The notes below the pieces were generated by a model, which worked only from the letters and a program-made list of their open reading frames with translations, ran no database searches and was not told the origin of the DNA. A program made the position numbers and the translations under genes. This document shows positions 5,290 through 54,759 of a DNA stretch of 64,000 nt, one piece after another; the stretch's first letter is position 1, and the number at the start of each line of letters is the position of its first letter. The stretch is from contig NC_086108.1 of NCBI RefSeq assembly GCF_963921235.1, positions 67,706,001 to 67,770,000 of the forward strand, given 5' to 3'. This DNA is from Mobula hypostoma (lineage: Eukaryota).

Positions 5290-5400
5290 CAAGAAGTCTC
5301 AGCCTGAAACATTGGCTGCTCATTTCCCTCCATAGATGCCGCCTGACCTGCTGAGTTTCTGCAGCATTTTGTGTGTTTTGCCCAAGATTTCCAGCATCTA
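5290..5400 (+). repeat. Old Penelope terminal-repeat remnant (family B)
   Basis: GTCTCAGCCTGAAACA...CATAGATGCCGCCTGACCTGCTGAGTTTCTGCAGCA resembles 30758-30870; ribozyme 5' core is lost. Confidence 0.7.
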
Positions 5401-5513
5401 AAAAAATCTCCCGTATCTGCATCATTTCAGCTTTTTGGAGAACATAATACGTGGCAACTTGATTAATTTAGATTATTTTTCTTGAATATTTACTAAAAGC
5501 AGCAACTTGTTTT

Positions 5514-5610
5514 GGGTCCTGACGAAGGGTCTCGGCCTGAAACGTCGACTGCGCCTCTTCCTATAGATGCTGCTTGGCCTGCTGCGTTCACCAGCAACTT
5601 TGATGTATGT
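5514..5610 (+). mobile_element. Stand-alone 97-bp Penelope terminal-repeat insertion carrying a hammerhead motif
   Basis: Nearly identical to 24589-24683; flanked by 10-bp direct repeat AACTTGTTTT (5504-5513, 5611-5620). Confidence 0.93.
5515..5550 (+). ncRNA. Minimal type-I hammerhead ribozyme motif
   Basis: GGTC-CTGACGA-AGGGTCTCGGCCT-GAAA-CGTC-GACT: CUGANGA and GAAA core boxes, stem II, palindromic ACGU stem III, GUC triplet, stem I GGTC/GACT. Confidence 0.85.
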
Positions 5611-6965
5611 AACTTGTTTTAATTCTGTTCTCAATTTTGAGTGTGATCCCACAATGTTGCAACTATCATTATTCCCTCTTCACTGACTATTAGTATCAAG
5701 CATGTCATGGTAAAGAATAACAGAAAGGAAAAACAAGTCTTGGATTTATTAGATCTTTCATCAATGTCTCAAAATATTTCAGATTATAACTTTGGTTCAG
5801 TGACTGTTGTTATATACAGTTACATGGCAATTCATTTTGTTCTCCAAAAGAGCCCATAGCAAAGAAACCTGTGACTAGTTGATCTATTTTTGGTGAGGAT
5901 TAAAACTCCATGCTTCAATAATCTCATCATATTCCTCTGGATGTGATATGAAAAAAAAACAGGCAGGCATATAGCTTGCAATGTTAATTTGGTCTGGCCT
6001 TCTAGTGTAACATCACATTAAAAAAATAGCACTTCTAACAATTCAGCAATCTCATAACATCATACTAAAGACTCAATCTAAATTAAAAGTGATAACTGCA
6101 ACTTTCTGGGCAAGGAGTATTTTCTATACACCCAATTTCACACAAGATATCCTTAGGCTCTTTATAATATTGGCAACAGAATTAATGTGTCAATATGTGG
6201 TCATATTTATTGGTGTGAACCCATGACTAAATAACTGTAATTATAAATTTATTTTACCCTTATCTTCAAACAATTAATTAGATATATAATACTTTAATCC
6301 CACATTCAAGTAAGGGAAATTTCCTTAATCTACCTTAAAATTTCCTTCTGTATTTTTGTTTCTTTGGTCATAAGCATGTAAGTTGTGAAAATGATTCTTA
6401 CAGTCTCCCTCTACACTTCACTAATATGCTTTCTTAATGTGACTTATAAAATGTTTCTTGAAAATACTAACTGGCACAGGGAGAGGGAAAAATCCCTTTG
6501 TATAATATGAAAAAGCAACAAAGGGAAATATTTGGCTTTTGAATATAAATAAGCTATATTAAAAGTAAAGCATAGTTAGTGAAATATAGGTTGACGTTAT
6601 CCTCTCCAGTACTGTCAAATCACATGTCAAATATAGATGAGAATTTTGAAACAGCAAGTAATTTTGTTCTTTTTTTAAGTGAGGCTTTTTTTTTACTTAT
6701 CAAGTCTCAACAATAAATTGTGCACTTAATTGCTGTAGATATAAATTAAAAACACAAATAAGTTAAGAAGAAATGTTGTTTTTGAAAAAATGAAATCAAT
6801 TCAACCAAAAATGTTGTCCATCATTAATATAAAATTGCGTTATAGGATATTTTGAAATACGTGTAATAATACAGATAATGAAATATAAACAGATTTATAG
6901 GTTATCATTTTTAGTTGAAGCTAATAAGTTATAAATAAAAATGTATATCAACCTTTTTTGAAATA

Positions 6966-7673
6966 TTAGAAACATAGAAACACAGAAAACTTACAGCACA
7001 ATACAGGCCCTTCAGCCCACAAAGCTGTGCCGAACATGTCCTTACCTTAGAAATTACCTAGGGTTACCCATAGCCCTCTAATTTTCTAAGCTCCATGTAT
7101 CTATCCAGGAGTCTCTTAAAAGACCCCTATCATATCTGCCTCCACCACCGTCGCCAGCAACCCATTCCATGCACTCACCACTCTCTGTGTAAAAAACTTA
7201 CCCCTGACATCTCCTCTGTACCTACCCCCCAACACCTTAAACCTGTGCCCTCTCGTGCTAGCCATTTCAGCTCTGAGAAAAAGTCTCTGACTATCCACAT
7301 GATCAATGCCTCTCATCATCTTGTACACCTCTATCAGGTCACCTCTCATCCTCCATCGCCCGAAGGAGAAAAGGTCGAGTTCACTCAATCTATTCTCATA
7401 AGGCATGCTCCCCAATCCAGGCAACATCCTTGCAAATCTTCTCTGCACTCTTTCTATGGTTTCCACATCCTTCCTGTGGTGAGGTGACCAGAACTGAGCA
7501 CAGTACTCCAAGTGGGGTCTGACCAGGGTCCTATATAGCTGCAACATTAGCTCTCGGCTCTGAAACTCAATTCCATGATTGAAGAAGGTCAATGCACCAT
7601 ATGCTTTATTAACTCCAGAATCAACTTGTGCAACAGCTTTGCGAGTCCTATGGACTTGGACCCCAAGATCCCT
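6966..7673 (-). mobile_element. CR1 LINE, 5'-truncated 3' end
   Basis: ORF 7116-7592(-) LYRTLVRPHLEYCAQFWSP...TRGHRFKV...FFTQRVVSAWN; GAAACATA-type tail. Confidence 0.95.
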
Positions 7674-7687
7674 CTTGCTTAACTGAG

Positions 7688-8123
7688 CCAGTGGTGCAGC
7701 ACTAGCTGGAGCGTGTTCGGCGCATCTCTAAGAAAAAAGCCAAAATAAGCAAGCTAATTAATTAGGTGCTGCCCAAGGTGATTTGGGTATCTCAGAAACT
7801 GCTGATCTCTGGGATTTTTATGCACAACAGACTCTGGAGTTTACAAGGAATGGTGCCAAAAACAAAAAAACATCCAGTGAGTGGATTTAACAAGATGGTT
7901 TCTCTCACAGGACAGCCACTCGCTGGATTTTTTTTTTGTTTTTGGCACCATTCTTTGTAAACTCCAGAGACTGTTGTGCGTAAAAATCCCAGAGATCAGC
8001 AGTTTCTGAGATACCCAAATCACCCTGGGCAGCACCTAATTAATTAGCCTGCTTATTTCGGCTTTTTTCTTAAAGATGTGCCGGACGTGCTTCGGTGCGC
8101 TCCGACTAGCGCTGCACCACTGG
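7688..8123. mobile_element. Fold-back (palindromic) element built from a Tc1-like transposase 5' fragment
   Basis: Inverted arms 7688-7884 and 7916-8123 around a 31-nt spacer; arms carry GGGTATCTCAGAAACTGCTGATCT... resembling the Tc1 HTH region (ISETADLLGF...KTSSE). Confidence 0.75.
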
Positions 8124-17957: not shown

Positions 17958-18140
17958 AACACTCACAACATGCTGGAGGAACTCAGCAGGTTGGGCAGCA
18001 TCCGTGGAAAAGATCGGTTGACGTTTCGGGCCGGAACCCTTCGTCGAGCGATCTTTTCCACAGACGCTGCCCGACCTGCTGAGTTCCTCCAGCGTATTGT
18101 GAGTGTTGCTTTGACCCCAGCATCTGCAGATTATTTTGTG
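17958..18140. mobile_element. 183-bp palindromic Penelope-derived insertion
   Basis: Inverted arms 17958-18016 and 18049-18107; 14-bp TSD AATACAATATAGGT (17944-17957, 18141-18154); hammerhead-like sequence in the loop. Confidence 0.9.
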
Positions 18141-21100: not shown

Positions 21101-21616
21101 AATCACCTGCTGTTGTACACAGAAGTCAAATGGCTCTCAAAAGGAAACTGCCTGAAACGCTTTTATGTACTTTTGGAAACTGTGATAAAATTATTTGAGA
21201 CTTGAATGCTTCATTCAGCAATCAACTCAAGAATATTAGGCATGATATTGCCTATTTGTCAAAACTATTTGCAAAATTTAATGAAATCAATCTTCAATGG
21301 CAAGGAAATGATGTGAATTTATCAAAGTCAAATCAGTTGTCTCCACATTTCTATCCAAGTTAACCCTATTTAAGTACAACATTTGTCATCATGACCTTTT
21401 CCAATTTCCAAGCCTCTCCAAGTTGGAAGAGAAAGAAAGAATACCAGATGATGATCTTCAAATATACTGTGCCCACCTGGATGAGATGTATAAAAACAGG
21501 TCAGAGAGATTTCAGCGCAAACAACAGGAATTCTGCAGATGCTGGAAATTCAAGCAACACACATCAAAGTTGCTGGTGAACGCAGCAGGCCAGGCAGCAT
21601 CTGTAGGATGAGGTGC

Positions 21617-21652
21617 AGTCGACGTTTCAGGCCGAGACCCTTCGTCAGGACT
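21617..21652 (-). ncRNA. Minimal type-I hammerhead ribozyme motif
   Basis: Reverse complement reads AGTC-CTGACGA-AGGGTCTCGGCCT-GAAA-CGTC-GACT. Confidence 0.87.
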
Positions 21653-22632
21653 AACTGAAGGAAGAGTGAGTAAGGGATTTGAAAGTAGGAGGGGGAGGGG
21701 GAGATCCAAAATGATAGGAGAAGACAGGAGGGGGAGGGATAGAGCCAAGAGCTGGACAGGTGATAGGCAAAAGGGGATACGAGAGGATCATGGGACAGGA
21801 GGTCCGGGAAGAAAGACAAAGGGGGGGGGACCCAGAGGATGGGCAAGGGGTATATTCAGAGGGACAGACGGAGAAAAAGGAGAGTGAGAGAAAGAATGTG
21901 TGCATAAAAATAAGTAACAGATGGGGTACGGGGGGGAGGTGGGGCCTTAGCGGAAGTTAGAGAAGTCGATGTTCATGTCATCAGGTTGGAGGCTACCCAG
22001 ACGGAATATAAGGTGTTGTTCCTCCAACCTGAGTGTGGCTTCATCTTTACAGTAGAGGAGGCCATGGATAGACATGTCAGAATGGGAATGGGATGTGGAA
22101 TTAAAATGTGTGGCCACTGGGAGATCCTGCTTTCTCTAGCGGACAGAGCGTAGATGTTCAGCAAAGCGGTCTCCCAGTTTGCGTCAGGTCTCGCCAATAT
22201 ATAAAAGGCCACATTGGGAGCACCGGACGCACAGTATATCACCCCAGTCGACTCACAGGTGAAGTGTTGGCTCACCTGGAAGGACTGTTTGGGGCCCTGA
22301 ATGGTGGTAAGGGAGGAAGTGTAAGGGCATGTGTAGCACTTGTTCCGCTTACACGGATAAGTGCCAGGAGGGAGATCAGTGGGGAGGGATGGGGGGGATG
22401 AATGGACAAGGGAGTTGCATAGGGAGTGATCCCTGCGGAATGCAGAGAGAGGGAGGGAGGGAAAGATGTGCTTAGTGGTAGGATCCCGTTGGAGGTGGCG
22501 GAGGTTACGGAAAATAATATGTTGGACCCGGAGGCTGGTGGGGTGGTAGGTGAGGACCAGGGGAACCCTATTCCTAGTGGGGTGGCGGGAGGATGGAGTG
22601 AGAGCAGATGTATGTGAAATGGGGGAGATGCA

Positions 22633-24293
22633 TCCCACACCATCACCGACTTTATCCGCTCAGGGGATCTCCCATCCACTGCTACCAACCTTATAGTTCC
22701 CACACCCCGCACTTCCCGTTTCTACCTCCTACCCAAGATCCACAAACCTGCCTGTCCTGGCTGACCTATTGTCTCAGCTTGCTCCTGCCCCACCGAACTC
22801 GTTTCTGCATACCTCGACACGGTTTTATCACCCCCTTGTTCAATCCCTTCCAACCTATGTTCATGACACTTCTCACACTCTTAAACTTTTCGATGATTTT
22901 AAGTTCCCTGGCTCCAATTTTCACCATGGATGTCCAGTCCTTATATACTTCCATCCCCCATCAGGAAGGTCTCAAAGCTCTGCGCTTCTTTTTGGATTCC
23001 AGACCTAATCAGTTCCCCTCTACCACCACTCTGCTCCGTCTAGCGGAATTAGTCCTTACTCTTAATAATTTCTCCTTTGGCTCCTCCCACTTCCTCCAAA
23101 CTAAAGGTGTAGCTATGGGCACCCGTATGGGTCCTAGCTATGCCTGCCTTTTTGTTGGCTTTGTGGAACAATCTATGTTCTGTGCCTATTCTGGTATCTG
23201 TCCCCCACTTTTCCTTCACTACATCGACGACTGCATTGGCGCTGCTTCCTGCACGCATGCAGAACTCATTGACTTTATTAACTTTGCCTCCAACTTTCAC
23301 CCTGCCCTCAAGCTTACCTGGTCCATTTCCGACACCTCCCTTCCCTTTCTAGATCTTTCTGTCTCTGTCTCTGTCTCTGGAGATAGCTTATCCACTGATG
23401 TCTACTATAAGCCTACTGACTCTCACAGCTATCTGGACTATTCCTCTTCTCAGCCTGTCTCTTGCAAAAACGCCATCCCCTTCTCGCAATTCCTCCGTCT
23501 CCGCCGCATCTGCTCTCAGGATGAGGCTTTTCATTCTAGGACGAGGGAGATGTCTTCTTTTTTTAAAGAAAGGGGCTTCCCTTCCTCCACTATCAACTCT
23601 GCTCTTAAACGCATCTCCCCCATTTCACGTACATCTGCTCTCACTCCATCCTCCCGCCACCCCACTAGGAATAGGGTTCCCCTGGTCCTCACCTACCACC
23701 CCACCAGCCTCCGGGTCCAACATATTATTCTCCGTAACTTCCGCCACCTCCAACGGGATCCCACCACTAAGCACATCTTTCCCTCCCCTCCTCTCTCTGC
23801 ATTCCGCAGGGATCGCTCCCTACGCAACTCCCTTGTCCATTCGTCCCCCCCATCCCTCCCCACTGATCTCCCTCCTGGCACTTATCCATGTAAGCGGAAC
23901 AAGTGCTACACATGCCCTTACACTTCGTCCCTTACCACCATTCAGGGCCCCAAACAGTCCTTCCAGGTGAGGCAACACTTCACCTGTGAGTCGACTGGGG
24001 TGATATACTGCGTCCGGTGCTCCTGATGTGGCCTTTTATATATTGGCGAGACCTGACGCAGACTGGGAGACCGCTTTGCTGAACATCTACGCTCTGTCCA
24101 CCAGAGAAAGCAGGATCTCCCAGTGGCCACACATTTTAATTCCACATCCCATTCCCATTCTGATATGTCTATCCACGGCCTCCTCTACTGTAAAGATGAA
24201 GCCACACTCAGGTTGGAGGAACAACACCTTTTACTCCGTCTGGGTAGCCTCCAACCTGATGGCATGAACATTGACTTCTCTAACTTCCGCTAA
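22633..24293 (+). pseudogene. Penelope-like RT + GIY-YIG endonuclease (Cys-rich linker suggests the Neptune group)
   Basis: FTMDVQSLYTSIPH, GVAMGTRMGPSYA, YIDD, PCKRNKCYTC, VIYCVRCS*CGLLYIGET*; in-frame TGA at 24024 and 24054; natural stop at 24291-24293. Confidence 0.95.
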
Positions 24294-24587
24294 TGCCCTA
24301 CCTCCCCCTCGTACCCCATCTGTTACTTATTTTTATACACACATTCTTTCTCTCACTCTCCTTTTTCTCCCTCTGTCCCTCTGAATATACCTCTTGCCCA
24401 TCCTCTGGGTACCCCCCCCCCTTGTCTTTCTTCCCGGACCTCCTGTCCCATGATCCTCTCGTATCCCTTTTGCCTATCACCTGTCCAGCTCTTGGCTCTA
24501 TCCCTCCCCCTTCTGTCTTCTCCTATCATTTTGCATCTCCCCCTCCCCCTCCAACTTTCAAATCCCTTACTCACTCTTCCTTCAGTT

Positions 24588-24623
24588 AGTCCTGACGAAG
24601 GGTCTCAGCCTGAAACGTCGACT
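24588..24623 (+). ncRNA. Minimal type-I hammerhead ribozyme motif in Penelope 3' repeat
   Basis: AGTC-CTGACGA-AGGGTCTCAGCCT-GAAA-CGTC-GACT. Confidence 0.87.
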
Positions 24624-27100
24624 GCACCTCTTCCTACAGATGCTGCCTGGCCTGCTGCGTTCACCAGCAACTTTGATGTGTGTTGCAGAGAGATTTCAGG
24701 ATCTTTTCTCGATCCAATAAATCCATGCCTGAAAGGTTGTAATGTGGAATTAACAGGAAGAATGGAGGAAGAACTGATCTTGCTGCAAAATGACTTTGAG
24801 CTGAAGGCAAGGTTCAAAAAAATCATACCAAGACTTTTGGTTGCAGATAGAAATCTCTCAATGCTATCCTGTACTGTGGAAAGAGATTACCACATTCTTT
24901 AGTGCTATCCAATGTTATATTTAGTGGAGCATGGTTTCAGAGCAGTCACCCAACTTCTTTCAAAGCAAAGAAACAGACTGTAAATTACTGAACGTGAGGA
25001 TCTGAGACTCCATCTGATTGACAATCAGCTTGATGTTGAGAAGCTGATATCACAGCACCCAGCCCATCCATCTTATTGAAATGTGAAAAAGCAATGTGGT
25101 ATTACTACTAATGAATGCTTTAAAGTTGCCGATGAAAATTGTTTTTATAGTAATTAAAGAAAGAAATAATTTTATTTGTAGCTTTAAAATGACTTGAATA
25201 ATTTTTTGTATTATTTGTAACTACTTTGAATTTACAGTTCCTAGTTTCTTTCTCTGTGTATCGTAAATTAATATTCTGTAGAGTTTTTATGGAATGACTG
25301 GAATGGGAAAGGGGTGCGCTGGGGATGTGGTCTGCAACCCAATGAGAGTGGTAACCCAAACAAATTTGGAAACCACTGATCTAGATCTTACTTAATTTAT
25401 CTAGATTTTTATTAAACACATCCATGCTATTCACATCAACTACATTTTTTGCCTTGTAAATTCCACACACTAATCACTGATTAAAGATTTTTCTCCGGGT
25501 TTCTATATTGGATTAAGAATCACCATCCATTTTTTTTTATATTTCTTGTCTGGTTTCCATTATGTCTGATTTCCTTCCCAATTTACTGGGCAGCTGAAAA
25601 TTCATAAGAAAGCTTATGAAAGGTTTTGATTCAAAATTCTATCCTTGAGTTCCTTTGCAAGGTTTCTTGGAGATCCTTGAACAGTATGGGACCAAGATAT
25701 ATAACTTAAAAAAGACAGAATGATTTAGCATACCAAAACATAACTGAACGTTCATAACAAAACTTCAGATGCTGGTCTAGATAAAGGCTCACATATTACC
25801 TGACTATTATTGTACAACAAGCTCTGACATAAGCTTTCAAAGTACCTTACTCACATAAAACCATGATTCAGTCAACATATTGATTCAATTTCCATTGGTA
25901 GCAATAATTATTGGAATATATTTATGAATGTTTCCAGCAAAACTGACTAAATAATAAATAATGTTACTTAGAATCTATAGAAAAATATGGTCTGGTGCTG
26001 AGGAACAGTGAAATTGTCATATTAGTCCCTCAGAATTGTTCAGCCAGCTAATATTATGGCTGAACTGTGACTTCTTCATATATGTGGCTTATATATATTT
26101 GCCTTAGCATTCTGTCATAACAAAACTTGTCAATCTCAGATTTAAAAGCAACAATTTATTTGGTATCAATTTTCATTTATGGAAGTATTTTTCAATCTTC
26201 TATCATTCTCTGTGTTTCTTGTTTTCACTCCTGAAAGGCAGGACATTAAATTTTGAACTCTACCCACTATATTTCTAGATTCCTCCACTTGTGAATAAAA
26301 TCTAAAGAAAATGGCCAGCGGTAAATAAAGAGAGGAGATTATGTCTGTGAGCCTGCTACCAGGATAGTCCTCTAAATTGTTTTTAGGTAATGAGAAGTTT
26401 TTCTGCTCTTTGTTCATTATGAAGGTGCAGAAATGAGTGTATGGACCAAAAGAGTGTCAGATGAGTACATTTGTTAAAGGGTATCCACGGGGGTCAAGTT
26501 TTGAGCACCTTTCTCAGATCAGCTCAGGTGGGGACCCCTATACATCAAAAAGAAACAGCACTCACAGGCATTGTGAATAGCGTTGGCTGTCCATTTCCCT
26601 CCATAAATCTTGCCTGACCAACTGAGTACCTCCAGCACATTGTGTGAAAGTCAGCCCTTGGATTGAGTGGTCTGTGGGTAATGGGAGCCATATACACCAT
26701 TGAAAATCTGGAAGTGGCACCCAGGCATGCATTAAATGTTATTGTTTTAATATCTGTTAAATTATTAAATGCACAGGGAACTTGAAACGAAAACTATAGA
26801 CAATCAGTATTTTATGTGGATGAAATTTTTTAATACTGGTTTCATTGCTTGTTGTACCATTACATTCAGATAATATACAAGGCTTTATAGACCATGATCT
26901 GATGTTTCATTATGTTTTGCTATGTTAAATACATATTTCTGTGTTATTAATTTCTATGTCTTAGCTATATACCATTATTCAAAGTAACTACCACTAACAA
27001 AGGAACTCAAGAATGGATTGCTATTATGCTACTTTGCAATACACACAAAATGCTGGAGGAACTCAGCAGGCCAGGCAGCATCTATGGAAAAGAGTGAACT

Positions 27101-27132
27101 GTTGACATTTCAGACCGAGACCTTTCATCAGG
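27101..27132 (-). ncRNA. Degenerate hammerhead motif (family B)
   Basis: Reverse complement CTGATGA-AAGGTCTCGGTCT-GAAA-TGTC; partner at 30748-30775 has GAAA changed to GGAA. Confidence 0.6.
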
Positions 27133-27867
27133 CCTCGAAAAAGAGATGAGAAGTCAGAGCAGGAAGATGGGGGGAGGGGAGGAAGAAGTACAAAGTGGCA
27201 GGTGATAGGTGAAACTGGGAAGGGGGAGGGGCATAAAGAGCTGAGAAGTTGATTGGTGAAAAAGATAAAGGGCTGGAGAAGGGGGAATCTGATAGGAGAG
27301 GGTAGAAGACAATGGAAGAAAGGGAATAGGGAAGAACACCAGAGGGAGGTGATGGGCAGGTAAGGAGATAAGATGAGAGACGGAAATGGGAATGGGGGAA
27401 TGGTGAAGTGCCGGGGGGTGGGGGTGGCAATTACCAGAAGTTCAAGAGATCAATGTTCATGGCATCAGGTTGGAAGCTACCACTCCAGCCTGAGTGTGGC
27501 CTAATCGCAGCAGTAGAGGATGCCATAGGCTGACATGTCAAAATGGGAATGGGAAGTATAATTGAAATTGGTGGCCACCGGGAGACACAGCATTTTCTGG
27601 TGGACGGTTTGTAGGTTCTCAGCGAAGCAGTCCCCCAGTCTACGTTGGGTCTCACTGATATACAGGAGGCCAAACTGGGAGCACCGGATACAGAATGATG
27701 ATCCCCACAGACTCACAGGTGAAGTGTCGCCTCACCTGGAAGGACTGTTTAGAGCCCTGAATAGTAGTGAGGGAGGAGGTGTAGGGGCAGGTGTGGCACT
27801 TGTTACTTGCAAGGAGAAGTGCCAAGAGGGAGATCAGTGGGGTTGGACAAATGGACAAGGGAGCTGT

Positions 27868-28135
27868 GAAATATAGAAACATAGAAAACCTACAGCACAA
27901 TACAGGCCTTTTGGCCCACAAAGCTGTGCCAAACTTGTCCTTACCTTAGAAATTACCCAGGGTTACCCATAGCCCTCCATTTTTCTAAGTTCCATGTACC
28001 TATCCAGGAATCTCTTATAAGACCCTATTTTATCCACCTCCATCACCGTCGCTGACAGCCCATTCCACGCACTCACCACTCTCTGCATAAAATCTTACCC
28101 CTGACATCTCCTCTGTACCTACTTCCAAGCACCTT
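27868..28135 (-). mobile_element. CR1 3' end fragment
   Basis: Matches 6969-7240, including the GAAACATAGAAAAC tail. Confidence 0.92.
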
Positions 28136-30356
28136 GTCTCCATTCCAACCTCACTCCTTCGGAACGCTCTGCTCTCCACTCCCTCCGCACTAATCCTAAC
28201 CTTATTATTAAACCCGCCGATAGGGGGGGTGCTGCTGTAGTCTGGCGTACTGACCTCTACCTTGCCAAGGCACAGCGACAACTCGCGGATACCTCCTCTT
28301 GATCATGACCCCACTAAGGAGCACCAGGGCATTGTCTCCCACACCATCACCATCCACTGCTACCAACCTCATAGTTCCCACACCTCGCACTTCCCGTTTC
28401 TACCTCCTACCCAAGATCCACAAGCCTGCCTGTCCTGGCCAACCTATTGTCTCAGCTTGCTCCTGCCCCACCGAACTCGTTTCTGCATACCTCGACATGG
28501 TTTTATCCCCCCTTGTTCAATCCCTTCCGACCTATGTTCGTGACACTTCTCACGCTCTTAAACTGTTCGATGATTTTAAGTTCCCTGGCCCCCACCGCTT
28601 TATTTTCACCATGGATGTCCAGTCTCTATATACTTCCATCCCCCATCAGGAAGGTCTCAAAGCTCTACGCTTCTTTTTGGATTCCAGACCTAATCAGTTC
28701 CCCTCTACCACCACTCTGTTCCGTCTAGCAGAATTAGTCCTTACTCTTAATAATTTCTCCTTTGGCTCCTCCCACTTCCTCCAAACTAAAGGTGTAGCTA
28801 TGGGCACCCGTATGGGTCCTAGCTATGCCTGCCTTTTTGTTGGCTTTGTGGAACAATCTATGTTCCGCGCCTATTCTGGTATCTGTCCCCCACTTTTCCT
28901 TCGCTACATCAACGACTGCATTGGCGCTGCTTCCTGCACGTATGCAGAACTCGTTGACTTTATTAACTCTGCCTCCAACTTTCACCCTGCCCTCAAGTTT
29001 ACCTGGTCCATTTCCGACACCTCCCTCCCCTTTCTAGATCTTTCTGTCTCTATCTCTGGAGACAGCTTATCCACTGATGTCTACTATAAGCCTACTGACT
29101 CTCACAGCTATCTGGACTATTCCTCTTCTCACCCTGTCTCTTGCAAAAACGCCATCCCCTTCTCTCAATTCCTCCGTCTCCGCCGCATCTGCTCTCAGCA
29201 TGAGGCTTTTCATTCTAGGACGAGGGAGATGTCTTCTTTTTTTAAAGAAAGGGGCTTCCCTTCCTCCACTATCAACTCTGCTCTTAAACGCATCTCCCCC
29301 ATTTCACGTACATCTGCTCTCACTCCATCCTCCCGCCACCCCAGTAGGATAGGGTTCCCCTGGTCCTCACCTACCACCCCACCAGCCTCCGGGTCCAACA
29401 TATTATTCTCCATAACTTCCGCCACCTCCAACGGGATCCCACCACTAAGCACATCTTTCCCTCCCCCCCCCCTGCATTCCGCAGGGATCGCTCCCTACGC
29501 AACTCCCTTGTCCATTCGTCCCCCCCATCCCTCCCCACTGATCTCCCTCCTGGCACTTATCCATGTAAGCGGAATAAGTGCTACACATGCCCTTACACTT
29601 CCTCCCTTACCACCATTCAGGGCCCCAAACAGTCCTTCCAGGTGAGGCAACACTTCACCTGTGAGTCGACTGGGGTGATACACTGCATCCGGTGCTCCTG
29701 ATGTGGCCTTTTATATATTGGCGAGACCCGACGCAGACTGGGAGACCGCTTTGCTGAACATCTACGCTCAGTCCACCAGAGAAAGCAGGATCTCCCAGTG
29801 GCCACACATTTTAATTCCACATCCCATTCCCATTCTGACATGTCTATCCACGGCCTCCTCTACTGTAAAGATGAAGCCACACTCAGGTTGGAGGAACAAC
29901 ACCTTATATTCCGTCTGGGTAGCCTCCAACCTGATGGTATGAACATCGACTTCTCTAACTTCCGCTAATGCCTCACCTCCCCCTCGTACCCCATCTGTTA
30001 CTTATTTTTATACACACATTCTTTCTCTCACTCTCCTTTTTCTCCCTCTGTCCCTCTGTATATACCCTTTGCCCATCCTCTGGGTACCCCACCCCCTTGT
30101 CTTTCTTCCCGGACCTCCTGTCCCATGATCCTCTCGTATCCCCTTTTGCTTATCACCTGTCCAGCTCTTGGCTCCATCCCTCCCCCTCCTGTCTTCTCCT
30201 ATCATTTTGGATCTCCCCCTCCCCCTCCAACTTTCAAATCCCTTACTCACTCTTCCTTCAGTTAGTCCTGACGAAGGGTCTCGGCCTGAAACGTCGACTG
30301 CACCTCTTCCTAGAGATGCTGCCTGGCCTGCTGCATTCACCAGCAACTTTGATGTC
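28136..30356 (+). mobile_element. Penelope-like element (family A), second copy: RT + GIY-YIG pseudogene and 3' repeat
   Basis: SNLTPSERSALHSL...IIKPADRGG start; ORF 28299-29645 has RT motifs; frameshift near 29345; TGA at 29699; near-identical to 22633-24680. Confidence 0.96.
30264..30299 (+). ncRNA. Minimal type-I hammerhead ribozyme motif
   Basis: AGTC-CTGACGA-AGGGTCTCGGCCT-GAAA-CGTC-GACT. Confidence 0.87.
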
Positions 30357-31878
30357 AATCCATGGCCTCCTCTACTGCTGTGATGAGGCCATTCTCAGAT
30401 TGGAGGTGTAACACCCTATATTCTATCGGGGTAGCCTCTAACCTGATGGCATGAACACTGATTTGTCATAATTGCAACCCCCCCCCCACTTCACCATTCC
30501 CCCATTCCTATTTCTCTCTCTCACCTTATCTCCTTAACTGCCCATCACCTCCCTCTGGTGCTCCTCCCTCTTCCCTTTCTTCCATTGTCTCCTACCCTCT
30601 CTGGTCAGATTACCCCTTCTCCAGCCCTTTATCTCTTTCACCAATCAGATTCCTAGCCCTTTAACTTCACCCCTCCTGGTTTCACCTATCACCTACCACT
30701 TTGTACTTCTTCCTTCCCTCCCTCACCCTTTTGCTCGGAATTGTCATCTGACGAAGGGTCTCGGCCAGGAATGTCAAGAGTTTCCTCTTTTCCATAGATG
30801 CTGCCTTGCCTGCTGAGTTTCTCGAGCATTCTGTTTGTGTTGCTTTGGATAACCAGCATCTGCAGATTTGCTTGTCCCCATGCTACTTTAATTATTTTGC
30901 CTAGAAATCAGTGAACGCAGTGGACCAGAATGTGATGCTACATTACTTGGCATTTCTCTGCATCTGCCCTATCATGAATAACTTGAAACTCCAAAATTAC
31001 CCCGGACTTTTTAAAAACTACAATCCAGAACTTTCCTTTGTTTTATCTCTCCAAGGCTTCTGAAATAAAAATCGAAATGTTGAAAATGCTCAGCAAGCCT
31101 GATTGGTACAGATTCAACATTTTCAATGCGAACTGTGGAAGATGGAATTTAATTTTAAGGAAACAGTGGAAACATGGATAATTTCATATCTTTCCAAGAA
31201 TGAAATAAATTGAAAATCCCACCGTTAATTATTGTTTAGAATTATAGAGTTGTACCGCACAGAAACGAGTTCCTTTGGCCCATCGTCCATGCCAACCATG
31301 GTGCCCATTTTCTCTAATCCCATTTGCCAGTATTAGACCAATATCCCTCTGTCCCTTTTCTATTCAAGTATCTGCCCAAACACTTTTAAACCCTGTAACT
31401 ATATTTCTCTACTACTTCATCTGGCAGCTTTTTCCAGATAACCACCAGATAAGAAATGTTCATTCTGAACCTCACTTAAATCCCCTGTCTTCAAACATAG
31501 ATTACTGCTTTGGTTCCTGAGGGGATATCCTAATTATTTAGTTACCCTCTTACTTATAATATTCTGATTTTTTTCCAGATTTTCCTTTATCTTACTTGCC
31601 AAGGTCATTTTTTGGCCTCTTTCTGTTCCAATTTATTTTGAAAATGCTTTCCTACCTTCCCAATAAGCTTCAAAGAGCTCTTTCAATAGCAATTTCCTAT
31701 AGCTAGCATATGTTTTTCTTTTTATTCCTGCTTTGTTACATTAGTCTATGGATTTTCTTGCTAAAAACTGAAAGATACTTTATTTTACGAGAAGGTGATC
31801 TCATCACTTAACATTTAATAAATGTCATACAATAAATTAAATTCTTTCTTTGTTTCAAGGGAACCCTAATAATCCCAG

Positions 31879-31973
31879 CAACATACATCAAAGTTGCTGG
31901 TGTACGCAGCAGGCCAAGCAGCGTCTGTAGGAAGAGGTGCAGTCGACGTTTCAGGCCGAGACCCTTCGTCAGG
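31879..31973 (-). mobile_element. Stand-alone ~95-bp Penelope repeat insertion with hammerhead core (31941-31974)
   Basis: TSD ATAATCCCAG (31869-31878, 31974-31983); sequence matches 5517-5610 in reverse. Confidence 0.93.
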
Positions 31974-34900
31974 ATAATCCCAGGTAGAATTTAGGTTACT
32001 AATGAAGTCAGGGTACAATTCACCAGGACTTCTGTGTGTCCAGCATTCATACTCAACATCCAACTGAAAAAAAAGTCATTCAAAATTGATGAGGAATGAA
32101 AGCATGCATCGTACTAAGTAGAAGATCTAAAACTTGATACAGGCTCTTGAACCTGCTGGAAATCTCCACAAGAAAACAATGTAAGATATTTAAATTACTT
32201 AATTTTAAAATTTATTTTGGGTGTAAGTTTTGTTAATAAACCTTCACTTTTTCCCAGCAATTATTTCAGCAGGCAGAACTAAACAGATATTTTTGGAGCA
32301 ATTAAGTGGTGACTTTATGTCATTTGCTGCTTTGTGATTTGATTGCTTTAGTTTAAGCTGTTGGTTGATATTGAATGTTTGGCTTTTCTTTCTGTTTGAT
32401 AAATGAAGCTGATTTTTATACAATGCCAGAATTATACCAACCAACATCGTTAATTGAACCATTCTTATTTTTCTTCCAAATCTTTTGAAATGTGATATTA
32501 GTTTCATCCGTGTTGCTGGTTATGCAAAACTTTTAATTATAAAAATTATATGTGCAGATGGCAAAAAATTAAATTCAAGTCATTTTCATTACTTTAATGA
32601 GGACTACTAAAAATGCCTAGGTTGCTTTATTGCATCCAGTAATTTTCTAAGTGGTCTTCTCGCTTTCCCTGGTAGAGAGTTACTGACAATGTGAAAATCA
32701 ATTATTTGGGAAAGGAAAAAGATTTAACGATAGTTCTCTTATTTCAAAACAGTTACAGCGATGAGTCACTGAGATATAACATCATATAAAGAGGGATGTT
32801 TGTGTATAAAATATGAGCTTGTTCACAGAAGTAATTCTGAAACATTTTTTAAAATATTTTTTATATTTTCCCCTTATACAGTATATAGTAAACTGAAGAT
32901 TACCTTGATTTGTGATTCATTGATGTAATAATCTCTGATTTAACTTAGCTATTTCTGTGGAAGTTTTTTTTCATCTCAAAAGGGTTTTCAAGACAACACT
33001 GGCTGATGGGGCATGAAAATCCATGATTAATAATAATAATAATAATAAGATAACATTTTCTAGTCCTGAGGCTGAAAGAATCACCAGAGGAGAACCTGCT
33101 CAAGCTGATCCTCTGTTTAGCAGAATCATCCCTTACTTTCTACCAGAGATGAGTTTTAGTCTCAATTGCTCCTGGTACAGGAGTTTGCCACAGCAGGCCA
33201 AGAAACCTGGCATGTTAATAATTCCTAATGGACGTTGCCTCACAATTAAAAGGATGCCCAGTTGTCAACCAGTCATCTAGCTTAGCGTGTTAGTCTACAG
33301 ATGAGATGGTGCAGTAGAAAGCTGGATCTTTTAACCCTACATGTCATACAGCCATCTGCATTCTCAGCTGCACTGACAGACCTGCCTTCTTGAACAGGGC
33401 GGACAAGAGCAGCCAAGAAGATAGGCCCCAATTGTGACTACTCAGTGCTTAATGTGGTTCTGCTCTTGAATGAAGTTGTTTGTCATATTGAATTGCTTGT
33501 CTTGTCAATTATAATTATGCAGAAGATAATCAAATGATCAGTAATAACTGGCAACATTGGAACAATGTTATAAAGGCGATTTGGCATCATGAATGCTTGG
33601 TAATGTTGAGAAGGTAGTTCTTGATGTTAATCGATTGTTTTGTGGGGACATTTTCCTGACTTACTCAAGTACCCAAGGTAGAAGAATAGCGATGTAAGTG
33701 ACCCCAGGCAAAGAAAGAATACAGAGAGAAAAATAACTTAAATCCACATTGCCCAGTACTCAACCAACAGATGTGACAACAGCTGATGGATCCAACAGCT
33801 CATGGATTCTCCTTATGACAAGGAAGAAACTTTCAGCAGTTGAGTCTCCTAGCTGTAAAATAATAACTACTGCAGAATTACATCAATGTTAAATGGTATT
33901 GAAAAATCAAAGTGGCACATGTGTTGCCCTGTGCTGAATGAGATAGAATATTCCTGTGTTCAGGTCTATAAAGACAAGTAAATAGAGATATTCTTCAAAG
34001 TCTTCCAATGGTAGAGAACATTCTTAAGTCTCTTTGAAACTTTTAAGAGCTAATCCTGAAATTCAGATTGTCCCTTCCACATAATAGAATGTGCTTTGTG
34101 TGATAATGAGTTGGCACTGATTGTGAGATTAATGTGTATTGTAGCTGCGGTAATTGTGTCAAATTCAAGTAAATTTCTTATCAAAGGAAATGTATCGGAT
34201 GTTTCTATTGGAAAACAAGTGATGAGACAGTTCAAATGTGTTTAAATCACTGTGCCAGTAAATTTTCCAGCTTTAGGATAAACTCCAATTCACCACCTAC
34301 CACACCCACCCCTGACACCTTCGTTGACTATCTACTCTGTCTAAAGGGGTTATCTAAAGGGGTAGTCAAAAATGAGCAGGGCTGGTGTTGACTGACTTGG
34401 ATGCAAAGTTGATTGCTGAAAACAATGCTTGGTATTTCCAGTCTTTGTTGTAGTTTATAAGGCATGGTATGGTAGAGAAAAGAATTTTGGTTTAAGCAAA
34501 ACCCAGTAGTTTCCAGATTCAAATCCTTTGTTCCACTTATCCTAGCATGTAGCACTATAGGTATTCAATTACCTATGCTTGAACCAGGAGAACTTCTTGA
34601 CTTCTAAAAGTAGAAGGCTTCCCTCATCCTCTCCAACTCAACAACTAATGCCAGTCCCTCAGTCATGGAGGACCCATTCACCTGCTTGCAGGAAATTGCA
34701 AACACTTTTAAAATGACTTCCAATGCCTTCCAGAGCCATAGTTCACCTCTTGTTCTGATGTTTACAATGGCTTTAAGAGCTCAAGGTAGTTTGAACTTGT
34801 GCGAACAATTCTTTAAGTTTTATCTTATGCTGGTGAACTAAATCAATCTACAATGCAGTTGGGCTGGCCAAACACTGAATTTGTGATAAGAGCAGGTGAA

Positions 34901-41399: not shown

Positions 41400-41705
41400 A
41401 AGAACAGAAAAGGTGGAAGAACTCGACCAGTCAAGCAGCATCTGTGGAAAGTGAAACGATACTAGCATTTCAAGATTCAAAATTGTTTATTGTTATTCTT
41501 CAGTACATGAGTGTGAAGAAGAACAAAATGATTTCAGGTCCAAGACTCTTTGTCAGGACTGGAAAAGAGAGAAAATAATTTTAAGTTGCAAACAATGTGG
41601 GGAGGCATGGATAGGACATAACTTTACTGATTTCTCTTTTCATAGATGTTGCTTGATAGGCTGCGTTCGTCATCATTTCTGTTTTTGTTCCAGATTCCAG
41701 CATTG
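41400..41705. repeat. Very old inverted Penelope repeat pair, interrupted by a ~60-bp LINE tail
   Basis: GCAGCATCTGTGGAAA ... TTTTCATAGATGTTGC arms; degenerate hammerhead at 41531-41560(-). Confidence 0.55.
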
Positions 41706-44750: not shown

Positions 44751-45857
44751 CAGAAGATGTCCCAATGATCAAAAAATCTGAATCCCTGCCCCCTGCTCTA
44801 ATCATTCAGCCACGAATTTATACTCCTATTCCTATTCCTATACTCACAGTCGCCTGGCACATCAACATGATATCACCAAAGGTCCCAGCACCAATCCCTG
44901 TGGTACACCATTTGTTAAAGGCTTTTATTCAGAAAAATTCTACACCCTGCCTCTTCATACCCAGTCAATTTAGGTACAGTTCACCAACATGCCCTAGATC
45001 CCTTGTGTACTGTGCTGTGGTGTTCTATGCTCTATTCCTTTTGCCATGTTTTAGTGCGTGTCAAAAAGGGAAGAAGAACAGGTTTATGACTGGCTAAAGA
45101 GCTGGCAGGAGGGCAACAGGTTTTTTACATCATTGGATCACTTCTGGAGGCAGGGGTGACCTGCACAATAAAGATGAACTGGACCTGAATTGGAGGGGGG
45201 AATTTCATAGAACCATAGACAGCCTACAGCACAATACAGCCCTTCAGCCCACAAAGCTGTGCCGAACATGTCCTTACCTGACAAATTACCTAGGGTTCCC
45301 CATAGCCCTCTATTTTTCTGAGCAACATATACCTGTCTAGGAGTCTCTTGAAGGACCCTATTGTATCTGCATCCACCACCATCGCCGGCAGCCCATTCCA
45401 AGCACTCACCATTCTCTGCGTAAAAAACCCCTGATATCTCATAGAACAGTGGTCCCCAATCACTGGGCCGCGGACTGGTACAGGGCCGAAAAGCATGTGC
45501 TACCGGGCTGTGAGGAAATGATATGATTTGGCGATATGAGTCAGCTGCACTTTTCCTCATTCCCTGTCATGCCCACTGTTGAACTTGAATGCACATGAGG
45601 TCATTACACGCGCGTCATTCATGTCAGCGCGGGAAGAAGATCAACTCCTCCAGCTTGCAAATGACGGTGGGCTGAAAAGTATGTTTCACATAACATCTCT
45701 GCTGGCATTCTGGATCAAAGGTTAAATATCCTGAGATAGCCACAATAGCACTGAAAACATTGCTTCCAACATATCTGTGAAGTGGGGTTTTCTGCATGAA
45801 TGCAACGAAAACTAAATTGCAGAATAGAGTGGACATAAGGAACCCCCTTCGAGTATC

Positions 45858-45947
45858 ACACATCAAAGTTGCTGGTGAACGCAGCAGGCCAGGCAGCATC
45901 TGTAGGAAGAGGTGCAGTCGACGTTTCAGGCCGAGACCCTTCGTCAG
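45858..45947 (-). mobile_element. Stand-alone ~90-bp Penelope repeat insertion with hammerhead core (45916-45949)
   Basis: TSD GAGTATC (45851-45857, 45948-45954). Confidence 0.92.
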
Positions 45948-46313
45948 GAGTATCGCTGTCTCTGATCACCCCTCGATGGGACCATCTTGTTGCAGGGAAA
46001 CAAGCCCAGGGCTCCCACTGATTCAGCGATATTGGTGTATTGTAATGATTTTATATGTTCATACGGGGAAAATATGTGCTGTGTGTTTAATATCCAAACG
46101 TTATTTAAAATGTTTTGATGCTATTGACTTATAAGTGACTTATAATTGACTTATCACTATATTCATGCGAGGAAAATATGCGCTGTGTGTTTAATATTAG
46201 ATTCGTTAGGTAAGCCCTTTTAGAAACGACATCGAGTGTATTAGCCACTTATAAGTGACTTATAGTTGATTTATCACCTATATTCTGCCATGATTAACAC
46301 CCTCCCCCCCACC

Positions 46314-46902: not shown

Positions 46903-49900
46903 TTATAGATTATAGAACGTAGAATAGTACAGCACAGTACAGGCACTTCGGCCCACAATGTTCTGCCAACCCTTAAACCCCGCCTCCCATATTACACTCC
47001 CACCTTAAATTCCTCCATATACCTGTCTATTAGTCCCTTAAATTTCACTAGTGTATCTGCCTCCACCACTGACTCAGGCAGTGCATTCCACGCACCAACA
47101 CCAACCACTCTGAGTGAAAAACCTTCTTCTAATATCCTCCTTGAATTTCCCACCCCTTACCTTAAAGCCATGTCCCCTTGTATTGAGCAGTGGTGCCCTG
47201 GGGAAGAGGCGCTGGCTATCCACTCTATCTATTCCTCTTAATATCCTGTATATCTCTATCATGTCTCCTCTCATCCTCCTTCTCTCCAAAGAGTAAAGCC
47301 CTAGCTCCCTTAATCTCTGATCATAATGCATACTCCCTAAACCAGGCAGCATCCTGGTAAATCTCCTCTGTACCCTTTCCAATGTTTCCACATCCTTCCT
47401 ATAGTGAGGCGACTAGAACTGGACACAATACTTCAAGTGTGGCCTAACCAGAGTTTTATAGAGCTGCATCATTACCTCACGACTCTTAAACTCTATCTCT
47501 CGACTTATGAAAGCTAACACCCCATAAGCTTTCTTAAATAACCAATCTACCTGTGAGGCAAATTTCAAGGATCTGTGGACATGTACCCCCAGATCCCTCT
47601 GCTCCTCCACACTACCAGTATCCTGCCATTTACTTTGTACTCTGCCTTGGAGTTTGTCCTTTGAAAGTGTACCACCTCACACTTCTCCGGGTCGAACACC
47701 ATCTGCAGCTTCCCAGCCCACTTCTGCATCCTATCAATGTCCCTCTGCAATCTTCGACAATCGTCTACACAATCCACAACACCACCAACCTTTGTGTCGT
47801 CTGCAACCTTGCCAATCCACCCTTCTACCCCCACATCCAGGTCGTTAATAGAAATCATGAAAAGTAGAGGTCCCAGAACCAATCCTTGTGGGACACCAGA
47901 AGCCACAACCCTCCAATCCGAATGTACTCCCTCCACCACGACCCTCTGCCTTCTGCAGGCAAGCCAATTCTGAATCCACCTGGATAAACTTCCCTGGATC
48001 CCATGCCTCAAAGAACTCTATCAGGCTTATTAGACAAGATCCGCTCTTTGCAAAGCCATGCTGACTGTCCCTGATCAGACCATGATTCTCTAAATGCCCC
48101 ATAGATCCTATCTCTAAGAATCTTTTCCAACAGCTTTCCCACCACAGATGTAAGGCTCACTGGTCTATAATTACCCAGACTATCCCTACTACTTTCTTTG
48201 AACAAGGGGACAACATTCGCCTCCCTCCAATCCTCCGGTACCATTCCCGTGGACAATGAGGACATAAAGGTCCTAGCCAGAGGCTCAGCAATCTCTTCCC
48301 CCAGCTCGTGGAGCAGCCTGGGGAATATTCCATCAGGCCCCGGGGATTATCCGTTCTAATGTATTTTAACAACTCCAACACCTCCTCTCCCTTAATATCA
48401 ACATGCTCCAGAACATCAACCTCACTCATATTGTCCTCACCGTCATCAAGTTCCCTCTCATTGGTGAATACTGAAGAGAAGTATTCATCAAGGACCTCGC
48501 TCACTTCTACAGCCTCCAGGCACATCTTCCCACCTTTATCTCTAATCAGTCCTACCTTCACTCCTGTCATCCTTTTCTTCTTCACATAATTGAAGAATGC
48601 CTTGGGATGCCTATCCCAAGAATGCCTATTCGCCAAGGCCTTCTCATGCCCCCTTCTTGCTCTTCTCAGCCCCTTCTTAAGCTCCTTTCTTGCTTATATT
48701 CCTCAATAGACCCATCTGATCCTTGCTTCCTGAACCTCATGTATGCTGCCTGCTTCCACCTGACTAGATTTTCCACCTCACTTGTCACCCATGGTTCCTT
48801 CACCCTACCATTCTTTATCTTCCTCACCGGGACAAATTTATCCCTAACATCCTGCAAGAGATCCCTAAATATCGACCACATGTCCTTAGTACATTTCCCT
48901 GCAAAAACATCATCCCAATTCACACCTGCAAGTTCTAGCCTTATAGCCTCATAATTTGCCCTAACCCAATTAAAAATTTTCCTGTCCTCTCTGATTCTAT
49001 CCTTTTCCATGATAATGCTAAAGGCCAGGGAGTGGTGGTCACTGTCCCCTAGATGCTCACCCACTGAGAGATCTGTGACCTGACCCAGTTCATTACCTAG
49101 TACTATATCTAGTATGGCATTCCCCCTAGTCAGCCTGTCAACATACTGTGAAGGGAATCCGTCCTGGACACACTTAAACTCTGCCCCGTCTAAACCCTGG
49201 AACTAATCAGGTGCCAATCAATATTAAGGGAAGTTAAAGTCACCCATGACTTACTTTTGCACCTTTTCAAAATCTGCCTCCCAATCTGCTCCTCGGTATC
49301 TCTGCTGCTACCAGGGGGCCTATAGAATATTCCCGAAAGAGTAACTGCTCCCTTCCTGTTCCTGACTTCCACCCATACTGACTCAAAAGAGGATCCTGCA
49401 ACATTACCCATCCTTTCTGTAGCTGTAATAGTATCCCTGACCAGTAATGCCACCTCTCCTCCCCTTTTAACCCCCTCTCTATCCCTTTTAAAGCACTGAA
49501 ATCCAGGAATATTGAGAATCCATTCCTGCCCTGGTGCCAGCCAAGTCTCTGTAATGGCCACTACATCATAATTCCATGCATGTATCCAAGCTCTCAGTTC
49601 ATCACCTTTGTTCCTGATGCTTCCTGCATTGAAGTACATGCACTTTAGCTCTTCTACCTTACTACCTTTACACCCTTTATTCTGCTTCTCTTTCCTCAAA
49701 GCCTCTTTATATGTTAGGTCTGGCTTTACTCCATGCACTATACTTGCAGTTCTCGCATGATCTTTATCCTCCTCCACCTCATTATCTGCTCTAACACTCT
49801 GGTTCCCCTCCCCCTGCAAATATAGTTTAAACCCCCCCAGAGCAGCACTAGCAAACCTTCCCACAAGGATGTTAGTCCCCCTCCAGTTCAGGTGTAACCC

Positions 49901-50258
49901 ATCCTGTCGGAACAGGTCCCACCTTCCCTGCAACAAGGTGAGGGGTCTTGGCCCGAAACGTCGACTGTACCTCTTCCTAGAGATGCTGCCTGGCCTGCTG
50001 CGTTCACCAACAACTTTGATGTGTGTGACAGTCATCTGCTGCTCAGGCTTGCTATTCCCTGCTTAGGCTTGCTATTCCCTTTTTTATCCATGCACAGGCC
50101 GACCTTCACGCGATTGCGCAGTCGTGCCCCGTTCAAACTGCAAAAGAAATGACCTTCCCCTCCTCCATCTGCTCGCTTTTTACACTCTCCCGCTGTCTCA
50201 CAGGCCGACCTTCACGCGCTTGCGCAGTCGTGCCCCGTTCAAACTGCCAAAGAAATGA
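46903..50258 (-). mobile_element. CR1 LINE 'B', near full length: putative 5' UTR, end of esterase ORF1, APE-RT ORF2 (decayed)
   Basis: WDLFRQDGLHLNWRG (SGNH-esterase-type ORF1 end), YFNAGSI, AITETWL, SDH, SGVPQG, KVADD; TAGAA-type tail at 46903-46930. Confidence 0.92.
49941..50027 (+). repeat. Penelope family A repeat remnant lacking the CTGACGA box
   Basis: GGGTCTTGGCCCGAAACGTCGACTG...CTTTGATGTGTGT; no TSD seen. Confidence 0.88.
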
Positions 50259-50701
50259 CATCTGTACCTACTTCCAAGCACCTTAAAACTGTACCCTCCC
50301 GTGCTAGCCATTTTAGCACTGGGAAAAAGCTTCTGACTATCCAAATGATCAATGCCTCTCATCATCTTGTACACCTCTATCAGGTCACCTCTCATCCTCT
50401 GTCGCTCCAAGGAGAAAAGGCCGTGTTCTCTCAACCTATTCTCATAAGGCATGCTCCCCAATCCAGACAACATCCTTATAAATCTCCTCTGCACCCTTTC
50501 TATGGTTTCCACATCCTTTCTATAGTGAGGCGACCAGAGCTGACCAGGGTCCTATATCGCTGCAACATTACCTCTCAGCTCCTAAACTCAGTCTCACGAT
50601 TGATGAAGGCCAATGCACCATATGCTTTCTTAACCTCAGAGTCAACCTGCACAGCAGCTTTGAGTGTCCTATGGACTCAGACCCCAAGATCCCTCTGATC
50701 C

Positions 50702-54023: not shown

Positions 54024-54759
54024 AAATATCCCCTGAACATTTGCCACATCTCTTCCATACATTTCCCTGAGAACATTTGTTTCCAATTTATGCTTCCAAG
54101 TCCCTGCCTGATAGCCTCATATTTCCCCTTACTCCAATTAAATGCTTTCTTAACTTGTCTGTTCCAATCCCTCTTCAATGTTATGGTGAAGGAGATAGAA
54201 TTGTGATCACTATCTCCAAAATGCTCTCCCACTGAGAGATCTGACACCTGGGCAGGTTCATTTCCCAATACCAGATCAAGTACAGCCTCTCCTCTTGTAG
54301 GCTTATCTACATATTGTGTCAAGAAACCTTCTTGAACACACCTAACAAACTCCACCCCATCTAAACCCCTCACTCTAGGGACATGCCAATTGATATTTGA
54401 GAAATTGAAATCTCCCACCACGACAACCCTGTTATTATTACACCTTTCCAGAACCTGTCTCCCTATCTTCTCCTCAATGTCCCTGTTACTATTGGGTGGT
54501 ATATAAAAAACACCCAGTAGAGTTATTAGCCCCTTTCTGTTCCTAACTTCCACCCACAGAGACTCTGTAGACAATCCCTCCATGTCTTCCTCCTTTTCTG
54601 CAGCCGCGACACTATCTTTGATCAACAGTGCCACGTCCCCACCTCTTTTGCCTCCCTCCCTCTGTCCTTTCTGAAACATCTAAAGCCTAGCACTCAAAGT
54701 AACCATTCCTGTCCCTGAGCCATCCAAGTCTCTGTAATGGCCACAACCCCATAAAAGCT

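Follow-up and report, generated by a model that had tools for sequence, protein, structure and literature searches.

The three short, ribozyme-bearing insertions in the 64,000-nucleotide stretch of Mobula hypostoma DNA analysed here (hereafter the window) are almost certainly 5'-truncated 3' pieces of a Penelope-like element (PLE) of about 3.5 kb, which stop at a genuine hotspot of 5' ends. As insertions they are unremarkable remains of an element class already known; it is their boundary that matters. Throughout, position 0 is the C immediately before CTGACGA, the core of the hammerhead (in copy 1, window 5518), and the term arm denotes an uninterrupted run of element sequence between a 3' end and the corresponding 5' junction, so that an inverted insertion comprises two arms. 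The features of the window are collected in Table 1.

Table 1. Penelope-like sequences, target site duplications (TSDs) and hammerhead parts located in the window.
Feature	Position	Strand	Remarks
Left TSD, copy 1	5504..5513	+	10 bp, exact, AACTTGTTTT
Two untemplated G between TSD and element, copy 1	5514..5515	+	
Short copy 1	5516..5610	+	element -2..+92; type A at the 3' end
Minimal type I hammerhead motif	5516..5551	+	predicted; read from sequence against the available text of PMC4209133
Core CTGACGA, copy 1	5519-5525	+	
Helix II, copy 1	5527-5538	+	
GAAAC-GTC, copy 1	5539-5546	+	
Predicted cut, copy 1	5546/5547	+	
Helix I 3' strand, copy 1	5547-5551	+	5' strand shortened
Right TSD, copy 1	5611..5620	+	10 bp, repeat of AACTTGTTTT
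Short copy 2 with TSDs	31869..31983	-	element 31879-31973, positions 0..+94
TSD, copy 2	31869-31878 and 31974-31983		10 bp
Short copy 3 with TSDs	45851..45954	-	element 45858-45947, positions +1..+90
TSD, copy 3	45851-45857 and 45948-45954		7 bp; ends overlap element by microhomology
Fourth short copy	49938..50026	+	starts at +9 inside hammerhead
Long inverted insertion of parent	21501..24700	.	RT and GIY-YIG-like coding sequence, 14-bp TSD
Minus arm of inverted insertion	~21517-22616	-	tail present, end B
Plus arm of inverted insertion	~22616-24685	+	without tail, end A
Second long 5'-truncated parent copy	28135..30355	+	
Older related Penelope-like family	5296-5400, 17971-18086, 27051-27140, 30748-30840, 41532-41670		75-85% identity; one is a short inverted pair

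The parent family is highly abundant: in the 3.48-Gb genome, a 34-nt stretch of the hammerhead occurs 43,454 times without mismatch and a 35-nt stretch further 3' occurs 86,533 times, the latter being a lower bound for family size. A consensus of fetched copies contains a single 888-aa open frame, ending with a stop at -299, in which a reverse transcriptase (RT) is followed by a C-X4-C-X2-C linker and a GIY-YIG-like endonuclease end. Matches to Pfam were weak, with RVT_1 falling below cut-off at E=3.7e-5 and 1.8e-3, and the 88-aa endonuclease piece matched no Pfam family. Among 20 near-full-length loci, found through the far 5' part of the element, 11 are partial tandems in which +133 leads into the beginning of the ORF, giving a unit of ~3.5 kb and placing the two alternative 3' ends of the family (sites A and B, below) between the hammerhead and the ORF start. 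The partial tandems form pseudo-LTRs and are accompanied by adjacent inverted, truncated arms, and one end carries an optional tail of 30-40 bp. From these predicted coding and structural features, the architecture of the parent is that of an endonuclease-positive PLE, as such elements are portrayed in the available text of PMC8557442; by motif comparison with the same text, in which the relevant pattern is CX2-5CxxC, the predicted linker is of the Neptune/Nematis type.

To survey the family, we took the first 100 genomic matches from each of two 3'-anchored variant patterns, without selection on the 5' end; these 200 arms all lie within the first 29 Mb of one contig. Addition of 30 hammerhead-anchored loci and the window brought the set to 313 arms, of which 159 have an inverted 5' junction, 126 a simple and 21 a direct one, with 7 cut by the locus edge.

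The 5' ends of these arms are concentrated at the front edge of the hammerhead. In the 3'-anchored sample, 32 of the 155 arms that reach position 0 end within 0..-5, corresponding to a rate of 0.0375 per nt (32 ends in 853 nt at risk) against 0.0014 per nt further upstream (74 in 52,326; -41..-1200), an excess of 26.5-fold (p=1.5e-31); relative to +54..+11 the excess is 11.9-fold. Simple copies alone give 14/436 against 34/28,492, or 26.9-fold, and among all 313 arms the hotspot is the best 6-nt window with 53 ends, followed by a window with 13. The preliminary description had argued that the shared 5' boundary exceeded what random truncation would give and had proposed plotting 5' ends as a check; the boundary is borne out by this pile-up, and a smooth distribution of ends was not seen. 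Genome-wide, a hotspot class defined by an exact match to 0..+26 and mismatches at all of -8, -7 and -6 comprises 4,292 arms, compared with 31,955 arms with the family bases at -8..-6; corrected for chance, ~9,700 arms (22%) end at the hotspot and ~78% read through. Ends among 91 fetched arms of this class number 9, 8, 27, 25, 19 and 3 at 0, -1, -2, -3, -4 and -5, respectively, such that the sharp upstream edge, a drop at -5, matches the first pair of hammerhead helix I at -4, while shoulders extend from +10 to -20. Hotspot ends occur in all 8 of the largest haplotype groups. They also recur in the older related family, in which 20 of 75 at-risk arms end at 0..-5, a count that derives from a noisy alignment and leaves out 116 pattern matches mixing old and young copies. 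Within the parent family, the concentration of ends at -4..-2 is seen in every subfamily. A 5'-end hotspot at PLE hammerheads was not reported in any of the titles and abstracts listed by literature searches.

Re-examination of the window sequence upheld the clean TSDs of 10, 10 and 7 bp originally described for the three insertions. Over 0..+91 copy 1 is identical to 19 long copies, and the three short copies share 95-96% identity with the 3' ends of three long arms that the window also contains and that carry RT and GIY-YIG-like coding sequence. The two untemplated G residues of copy 1 resemble neither its TSD nor the family bases at -4/-3. A fourth short copy, nested in a LINE coding fragment, has no TSD that we could find. 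Given that TSDs of at least 8 bp flank 22 of 31 simple hotspot copies but only 2 of 235 swapped-flank controls, the TSDs of this class are not due to chance; in an enlarged set of simple hotspot copies a TSD was present in 38 of 67. Across 65 target sites no consensus emerged beyond A-richness 5' of the TSD.

At the 3' side, ends of the family fall into two groups, A with 156 arms (chiefly +91..+101) and B with 154 (chiefly +123..+133), while 3 lie between them (n=313). The modal ends, ~+94 and ~+130, lie 36 nt apart, and this difference is the known tail. Since long arms use the same ends (59 A and 59 B, n=121), the 3' end shared by the three short copies is the family's own tail-less end; the common end that had been pointed out is therefore present, but is not peculiar to short copies, being shared by 59 of the 121 long arms. 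Simple hotspot copies likewise divide into 31 ending at A, 35 at B and 1 beyond (n=67). The notion of a discrete ~95-nt unit does not survive this count, as the 35 copies that bear the tail measure ~135 nt.

Inverted pairs follow a strict rule, combining one A arm with one B arm in 66 of 67 cases and never two B arms, a pattern suggestive of a separate priming site for each of the two target ends. Arm lengths within pairs are coupled (41 both short, 17 both long, 8 mixed), and arms end at 0..-5 in 3 of 31 cases if the partner passed -40, compared with 26 of 51 if the partner is short. A shorter arm that stops at the hotspot although its partner runs on was seen in 3 of 22 inverted pairs, where 0.36 would be expected (p=0.006). 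At some simple 5' junctions, 9-13 apparently extra bases were found to be the reverse complement of the tail end, and hence to represent tiny inverted arms (e.g. contig C1 near 601742, L065, and 3315596, L085). From these, both ends may be primed even in simple insertions.

Rfam searches recovered no hammerhead in the window at E<=1, and the motif was identified by eye. In the predicted fold, helix I pairs -4..0 with +29..+33 and cleavage falls between +28 and +29. Because the 5' ends of most short copies fall inside the 5' strand of helix I, these copies break the predicted ribozyme: all five helix I pairs are present in 18 of 66 short copies versus 105 of 117 long ones. The hammerhead of the three insertions in the window is incomplete, with 4, 2 and 2 of the 5 pairs retained, one of the four using an untemplated G. 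Ribozyme cleavage was rejected as the origin of the boundary, the predicted cut lying ~30 nt downstream of the hotspot, in agreement with the initial view that self-cleavage does not define it. A local excess of 5' ends at +29 (~20 of 100 rows, counted by hand) is for the most part accounted for by GAC/GACT microhomology.

Several further features of this region were observed. An alternative hairpin spanning -18..+12 (-9.9 kcal/mol, loop -5..0) is predicted to sequester the catalytic core and to compete with the hammerhead fold. In 4 of 100 rows the core has been deleted, with +1..+28 lost between two GTC direct repeats (e.g. C1:103023575 and C1:139170725). A pyrimidine tract and CAG at -24..-6 (window 24567-24585) end just before helix I, in a motif that is branch-point-like and that also resembles an initiator element.

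We consider it somewhat probable that hotspot truncation arises at the end of the template, with an RT primed ~95 or ~130 nt from the RNA 5' end running off that end. By analogy with the anole element in the available text of PMC11167929, A and B would be internal RT start sites used after a GIY-YIG nick. The element RNA would begin in the pseudo-LTR at about -4..-2, either as a capped start or through trimming of its 5' end to helix I, and priming at the first A or B site of such an RNA could yield only a 95- or 135-nt cDNA, which, once joined to the other target end, would leave a TSD-flanked short copy. Long copies would instead stem from priming at the downstream pseudo-LTR of a read-through, tandem or circular RNA. 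Short copies, with neither a promoter nor an entire helix I nor anything past the site of priming, would give rise to no further copies. The geometry of the element bears on this scheme: since A and B are situated a short way upstream of the ORF, any RNA started in the pseudo-LTR has its first priming sites 95-135 nt from its 5' end, and because only a short run-off is possible on it, a fixed boundary would result in all subfamilies without a separate source. Trimming of an uncapped end to helix I would have a parallel in R2, for which the available text of PMC11331408 proposes the ribozyme fold as a barrier to 5'-3' decay.

The abrupt upstream edge of the hotspot speaks for such a template end, and untemplated bases at the junctions bear on the nature of the proposed RNA end. 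The last untemplated base is G at 7 of 14 hotspot junctions but at 0 of 19 others (Fisher p=0.0008), a signal that was noticed post hoc (5/9 versus 0/17 in the first set, 2/5 among later-added loci). In full-length L1 insertions, copying as far as the cap is signalled by one additional G (PMC11702581), and the G found here would fit copying to a capped RNA end. Among TSD-bearing hotspot copies, 7 of 38 have an extra G, 15 of 38 show microhomology and 23 of 38 are blunt or have extra bases, such that the junctions, mostly blunt or microhomologous, are unlike those of full-length L1. Arm-length coupling is expected if templates come in two classes, but fold-back predicts the same, so the coupling is not decisive; the pairs that combine a short arm at the hotspot with a longer partner require either two RNAs or a true RT stop. 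Penelope of D. virilis has its start site 46 nt ahead of an intron of 75 nt, the end of which coincides with helix I (PMC2377424, PMC4209133). This is ~120 nt further upstream than the start proposed here, which counts against an RNA-end origin of the boundary.

A more specific formulation, which we advance only tentatively, is that PLEs integrate strong-stop-like cDNAs, with a capped start at the first pairs of helix I, priming of target ends at A and B, and about one fifth of reactions running off the cap. Retroviral minus-strand strong-stop DNA is primed close to the RNA 5' end and completed by run-off. Here, unlike in retroviruses, synthesis under the preferred RNA-end explanation would be target-primed and its product directly integrated, without a tRNA primer, and the likeness is one of analogy only. 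If this formulation is true, thousands of genomic junctions map the transcription start of the element, and the minimal hammerhead is a 5'-terminal structure of the RNA rather than mainly a cutter.

It is rather unlikely, in our estimate, that the RT instead terminates at -4..-2 on an intact, longer RNA, blocked just upstream by an element protein (in the manner of a telomerase template boundary), by splicing factors at the tract and AG of -20..-6, or by the 5' arm of the alternative hairpin. Read-through by ~78% of arms with the rest stopping is what a leaky block would give, and the pairs in which the shorter arm halts at the hotspot as its partner passes it (3/22) are also in keeping with a stop. 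Furthermore, the zone of raised hazard, +10..-20, matches the -9.9 kcal/mol hairpin with its loop at -5..0, and the branch-point, pyrimidine and AG motif ends at -6, where the D. virilis intron ends. Conversely, hotspot windows are ordinary in fold stability, ranking 35th to 102nd of 613, and stronger hairpins upstream show no pile-up. An RT arrested by structure is expected to halt before entering a helix, at its 3' side. Here the enzyme enters the folds from their 3' side (+33 or +12) and ends pile up at -4..-2, past both predicted helices, which have already been copied; a stop by the fold itself therefore fits poorly, and the modest ranks together with the position of ends on the far side of the helices make simple thermodynamic stalling unlikely. 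What remains of the strong RT stop at the ribozyme fold that had been entertained earlier is the preferred stopping point as a pattern, whereas the fold as its cause fits poorly. A block also has to contend with the older family, in which the AG lies at -3/-2 and the peak is still at about -4..0, and leaves the extra G unexplained. The -22..-1 hairpin was discarded as a cause because the peak is the same in subfamilies with a perfect (12/63) or a mismatched (17/64) hairpin. Two related candidates were likewise rejected: splicing to the AG at -7/-6, with only 3 of 91 ends at -5 and 0 of 21 direct junctions joining -5 to an upstream donor, and an additional peak at the base of the alternative hairpin, where 1,643 arms end in -21..-11 and a hand count gave a broad plateau only.

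Improbable, by comparison, is an origin after reverse transcription, in which a full-length cDNA is cut or joined preferentially at this point, through cleavage of a hairpin loop or through microhomology in the self-complementary hammerhead region. The hotspot does coincide with the loop of the -18..+12 hairpin, many inverted junctions use microhomologies of 2-4 nt in the region, and 15 of 38 simple junctions show microhomology, as noted above. However, the hairpin is weak as cDNA (rank 132 of 613, at -3.6 kcal/mol), the ~27-fold excess is equally present among simple insertions into unrelated targets, and 23 of the 38 simple junctions are blunt or carry extra bases.

The lineage of the short copies was assessed from shared variants and from a tree. 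Two variants, GCTTGGCC and GATGTATGT, had been reported as private to short copies, but the pattern containing both has 11,975 matches genome-wide and marks a subfamily, 43 of whose first 100 carriers reach more than 100 nt upstream. Simple short copies make up 6 of 100 arms in this two-variant class, compared with 11 of 100 for the other pattern. A tree was built from 92 columns for 31 short and 121 long arms; the columns are few and many forks are unresolved. On it, 21 changes suffice to account for the short label, the mean under shuffling being 24, with 33-52 of 500 shuffles as low, and six sets of identical rows in the alignment span both groups; short and long copies thus interleave, contrary to the separate source lineage suggested at the outset. 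Among six diagnostic sites compared, only +20 differs, weakly (p=0.048, uncorrected), and the mean distance over 92 nt is slightly lower between short copies (4.5) than between short and long ones (5.4). No two of the 31 short copies have similar junction-adjacent flanks. An own lineage, diagnostic variants and fixed ends, as would characterise a SINE-like unit, were not found, and a crude exact-pattern scan of -5..+94 gave no Pol III A or B boxes. Nor did the copies show the tandem units, two or more intact hammerheads and cleavage-site bounds of retrozymes; they are single, dispersed and TSD-flanked, with bounds at -4..0 and +94/+130 as opposed to the predicted cut at +28/+29. Taken together, the interleaved tree, the lack of private variants, the use of both 3' end types and the unshared flanks give no support to a separate retrozyme or SINE. 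The early proposal, in which the Penelope protein would mobilise in trans a discrete, non-autonomous unit of ~95 nt that is retrozyme/SINE-like and has a lineage of its own, is therefore very improbable: thousands of similar short TSD-flanked copies, their slightly smaller distances and the weak difference at +20 speak for it, and are set against the interleaving, the long copies identical to copy 1, the mixed 3' ends (31 A, 35 B, 1 other), the scatter of 5' ends across 0..-5, the rarity of a complete helix I in short copies, and copies that are not tandem and end away from the cleavage site.

Much of this behaviour is already published, including, in the available texts of PMC11167929, PMC8557442, PMC3846280 and PMC4209133, the two start sites, the one-sided tail, the inverted arms and dispersed solo hammerheads. 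Endonuclease-positive PLEs are described with a pseudo-LTR, a one-sided tail of 30-40 bp and 5'-truncated and inverted insertions (PMC8557442, PMC3846280, as far as available). The present family resembles them in its order of RT and GIY-YIG-like domain, partial tandems, head-to-head arms, TSDs of mostly 11-16 bp, a tail on one arm and a hammerhead in the pseudo-LTR. It differs in that the available portions of those two accounts present heavy 5' truncation without a pile-up at the front edge of the hammerhead. For Poseidon PAc of Anolis carolinensis, the text of PMC11167929 available to us reports two internal RT start sites about a tail-length apart, after the hammerhead and at the ORF start, with extension of both DNA strands and uncut RNA as the template, hammerhead cleavage being dispensable in vitro. 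In that source the 3' ends are mapped and the main text is without a 5'-end hotspot; the Cys-rich linker found here, of predicted Neptune/Nematis type, also sets the present element apart from PAc.

Solo minimal hammerheads of metazoan PLEs number in the thousands and are called "probably related to truncated PLEs" in the available text of PMC4209133. With these the present copies share the core, a bulged base before helix II and a palindromic AC/GU replacing helix III, and they go beyond that account, as far as available, in beginning at a preferred point inside helix I. Non-LTR retrozymes are characterised, in the accessible text of PMC7761336 and bioRxiv 10.64898/2026.07.22.740005, by tandem arrays, at least two intact hammerheads and circular RNA. 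Like them, the short copies are non-coding, hammerhead-bearing and derived from PLE pseudo-LTRs, and dispersed monomers are reported for retrozymes as well; unlike them, the copies are single, mostly with a broken helix I, and bounded by putative RT start sites and the hotspot. In annotation, copies of ~95 or 135 nt could be mistaken for a SINE or a retrozyme monomer. The way in which PLEs are copied and the in vivo role of their minimal hammerheads are called a mystery in PMC7761336. The ~27-fold pile-up at the foot of helix I, not at the cut site, together with the rule of one A and one B arm, provides sharp predictions for the existing in vitro system and for 5'-end mapping.

Other elements were also observed in and around the window. 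Arms of the older Penelope-like family numbered 108 in 1.6 Mb of fetched DNA. By eye, positions 443-2503 contain frameshifted RT, RNase H and integrase-like frames with the look of a Gypsy-type LTR retrotransposon, and CR1/L2-like and RTE-like LINE coding fragments lie at 7116-7727, 47565-54679, 58882-59397 and 61976-62743.
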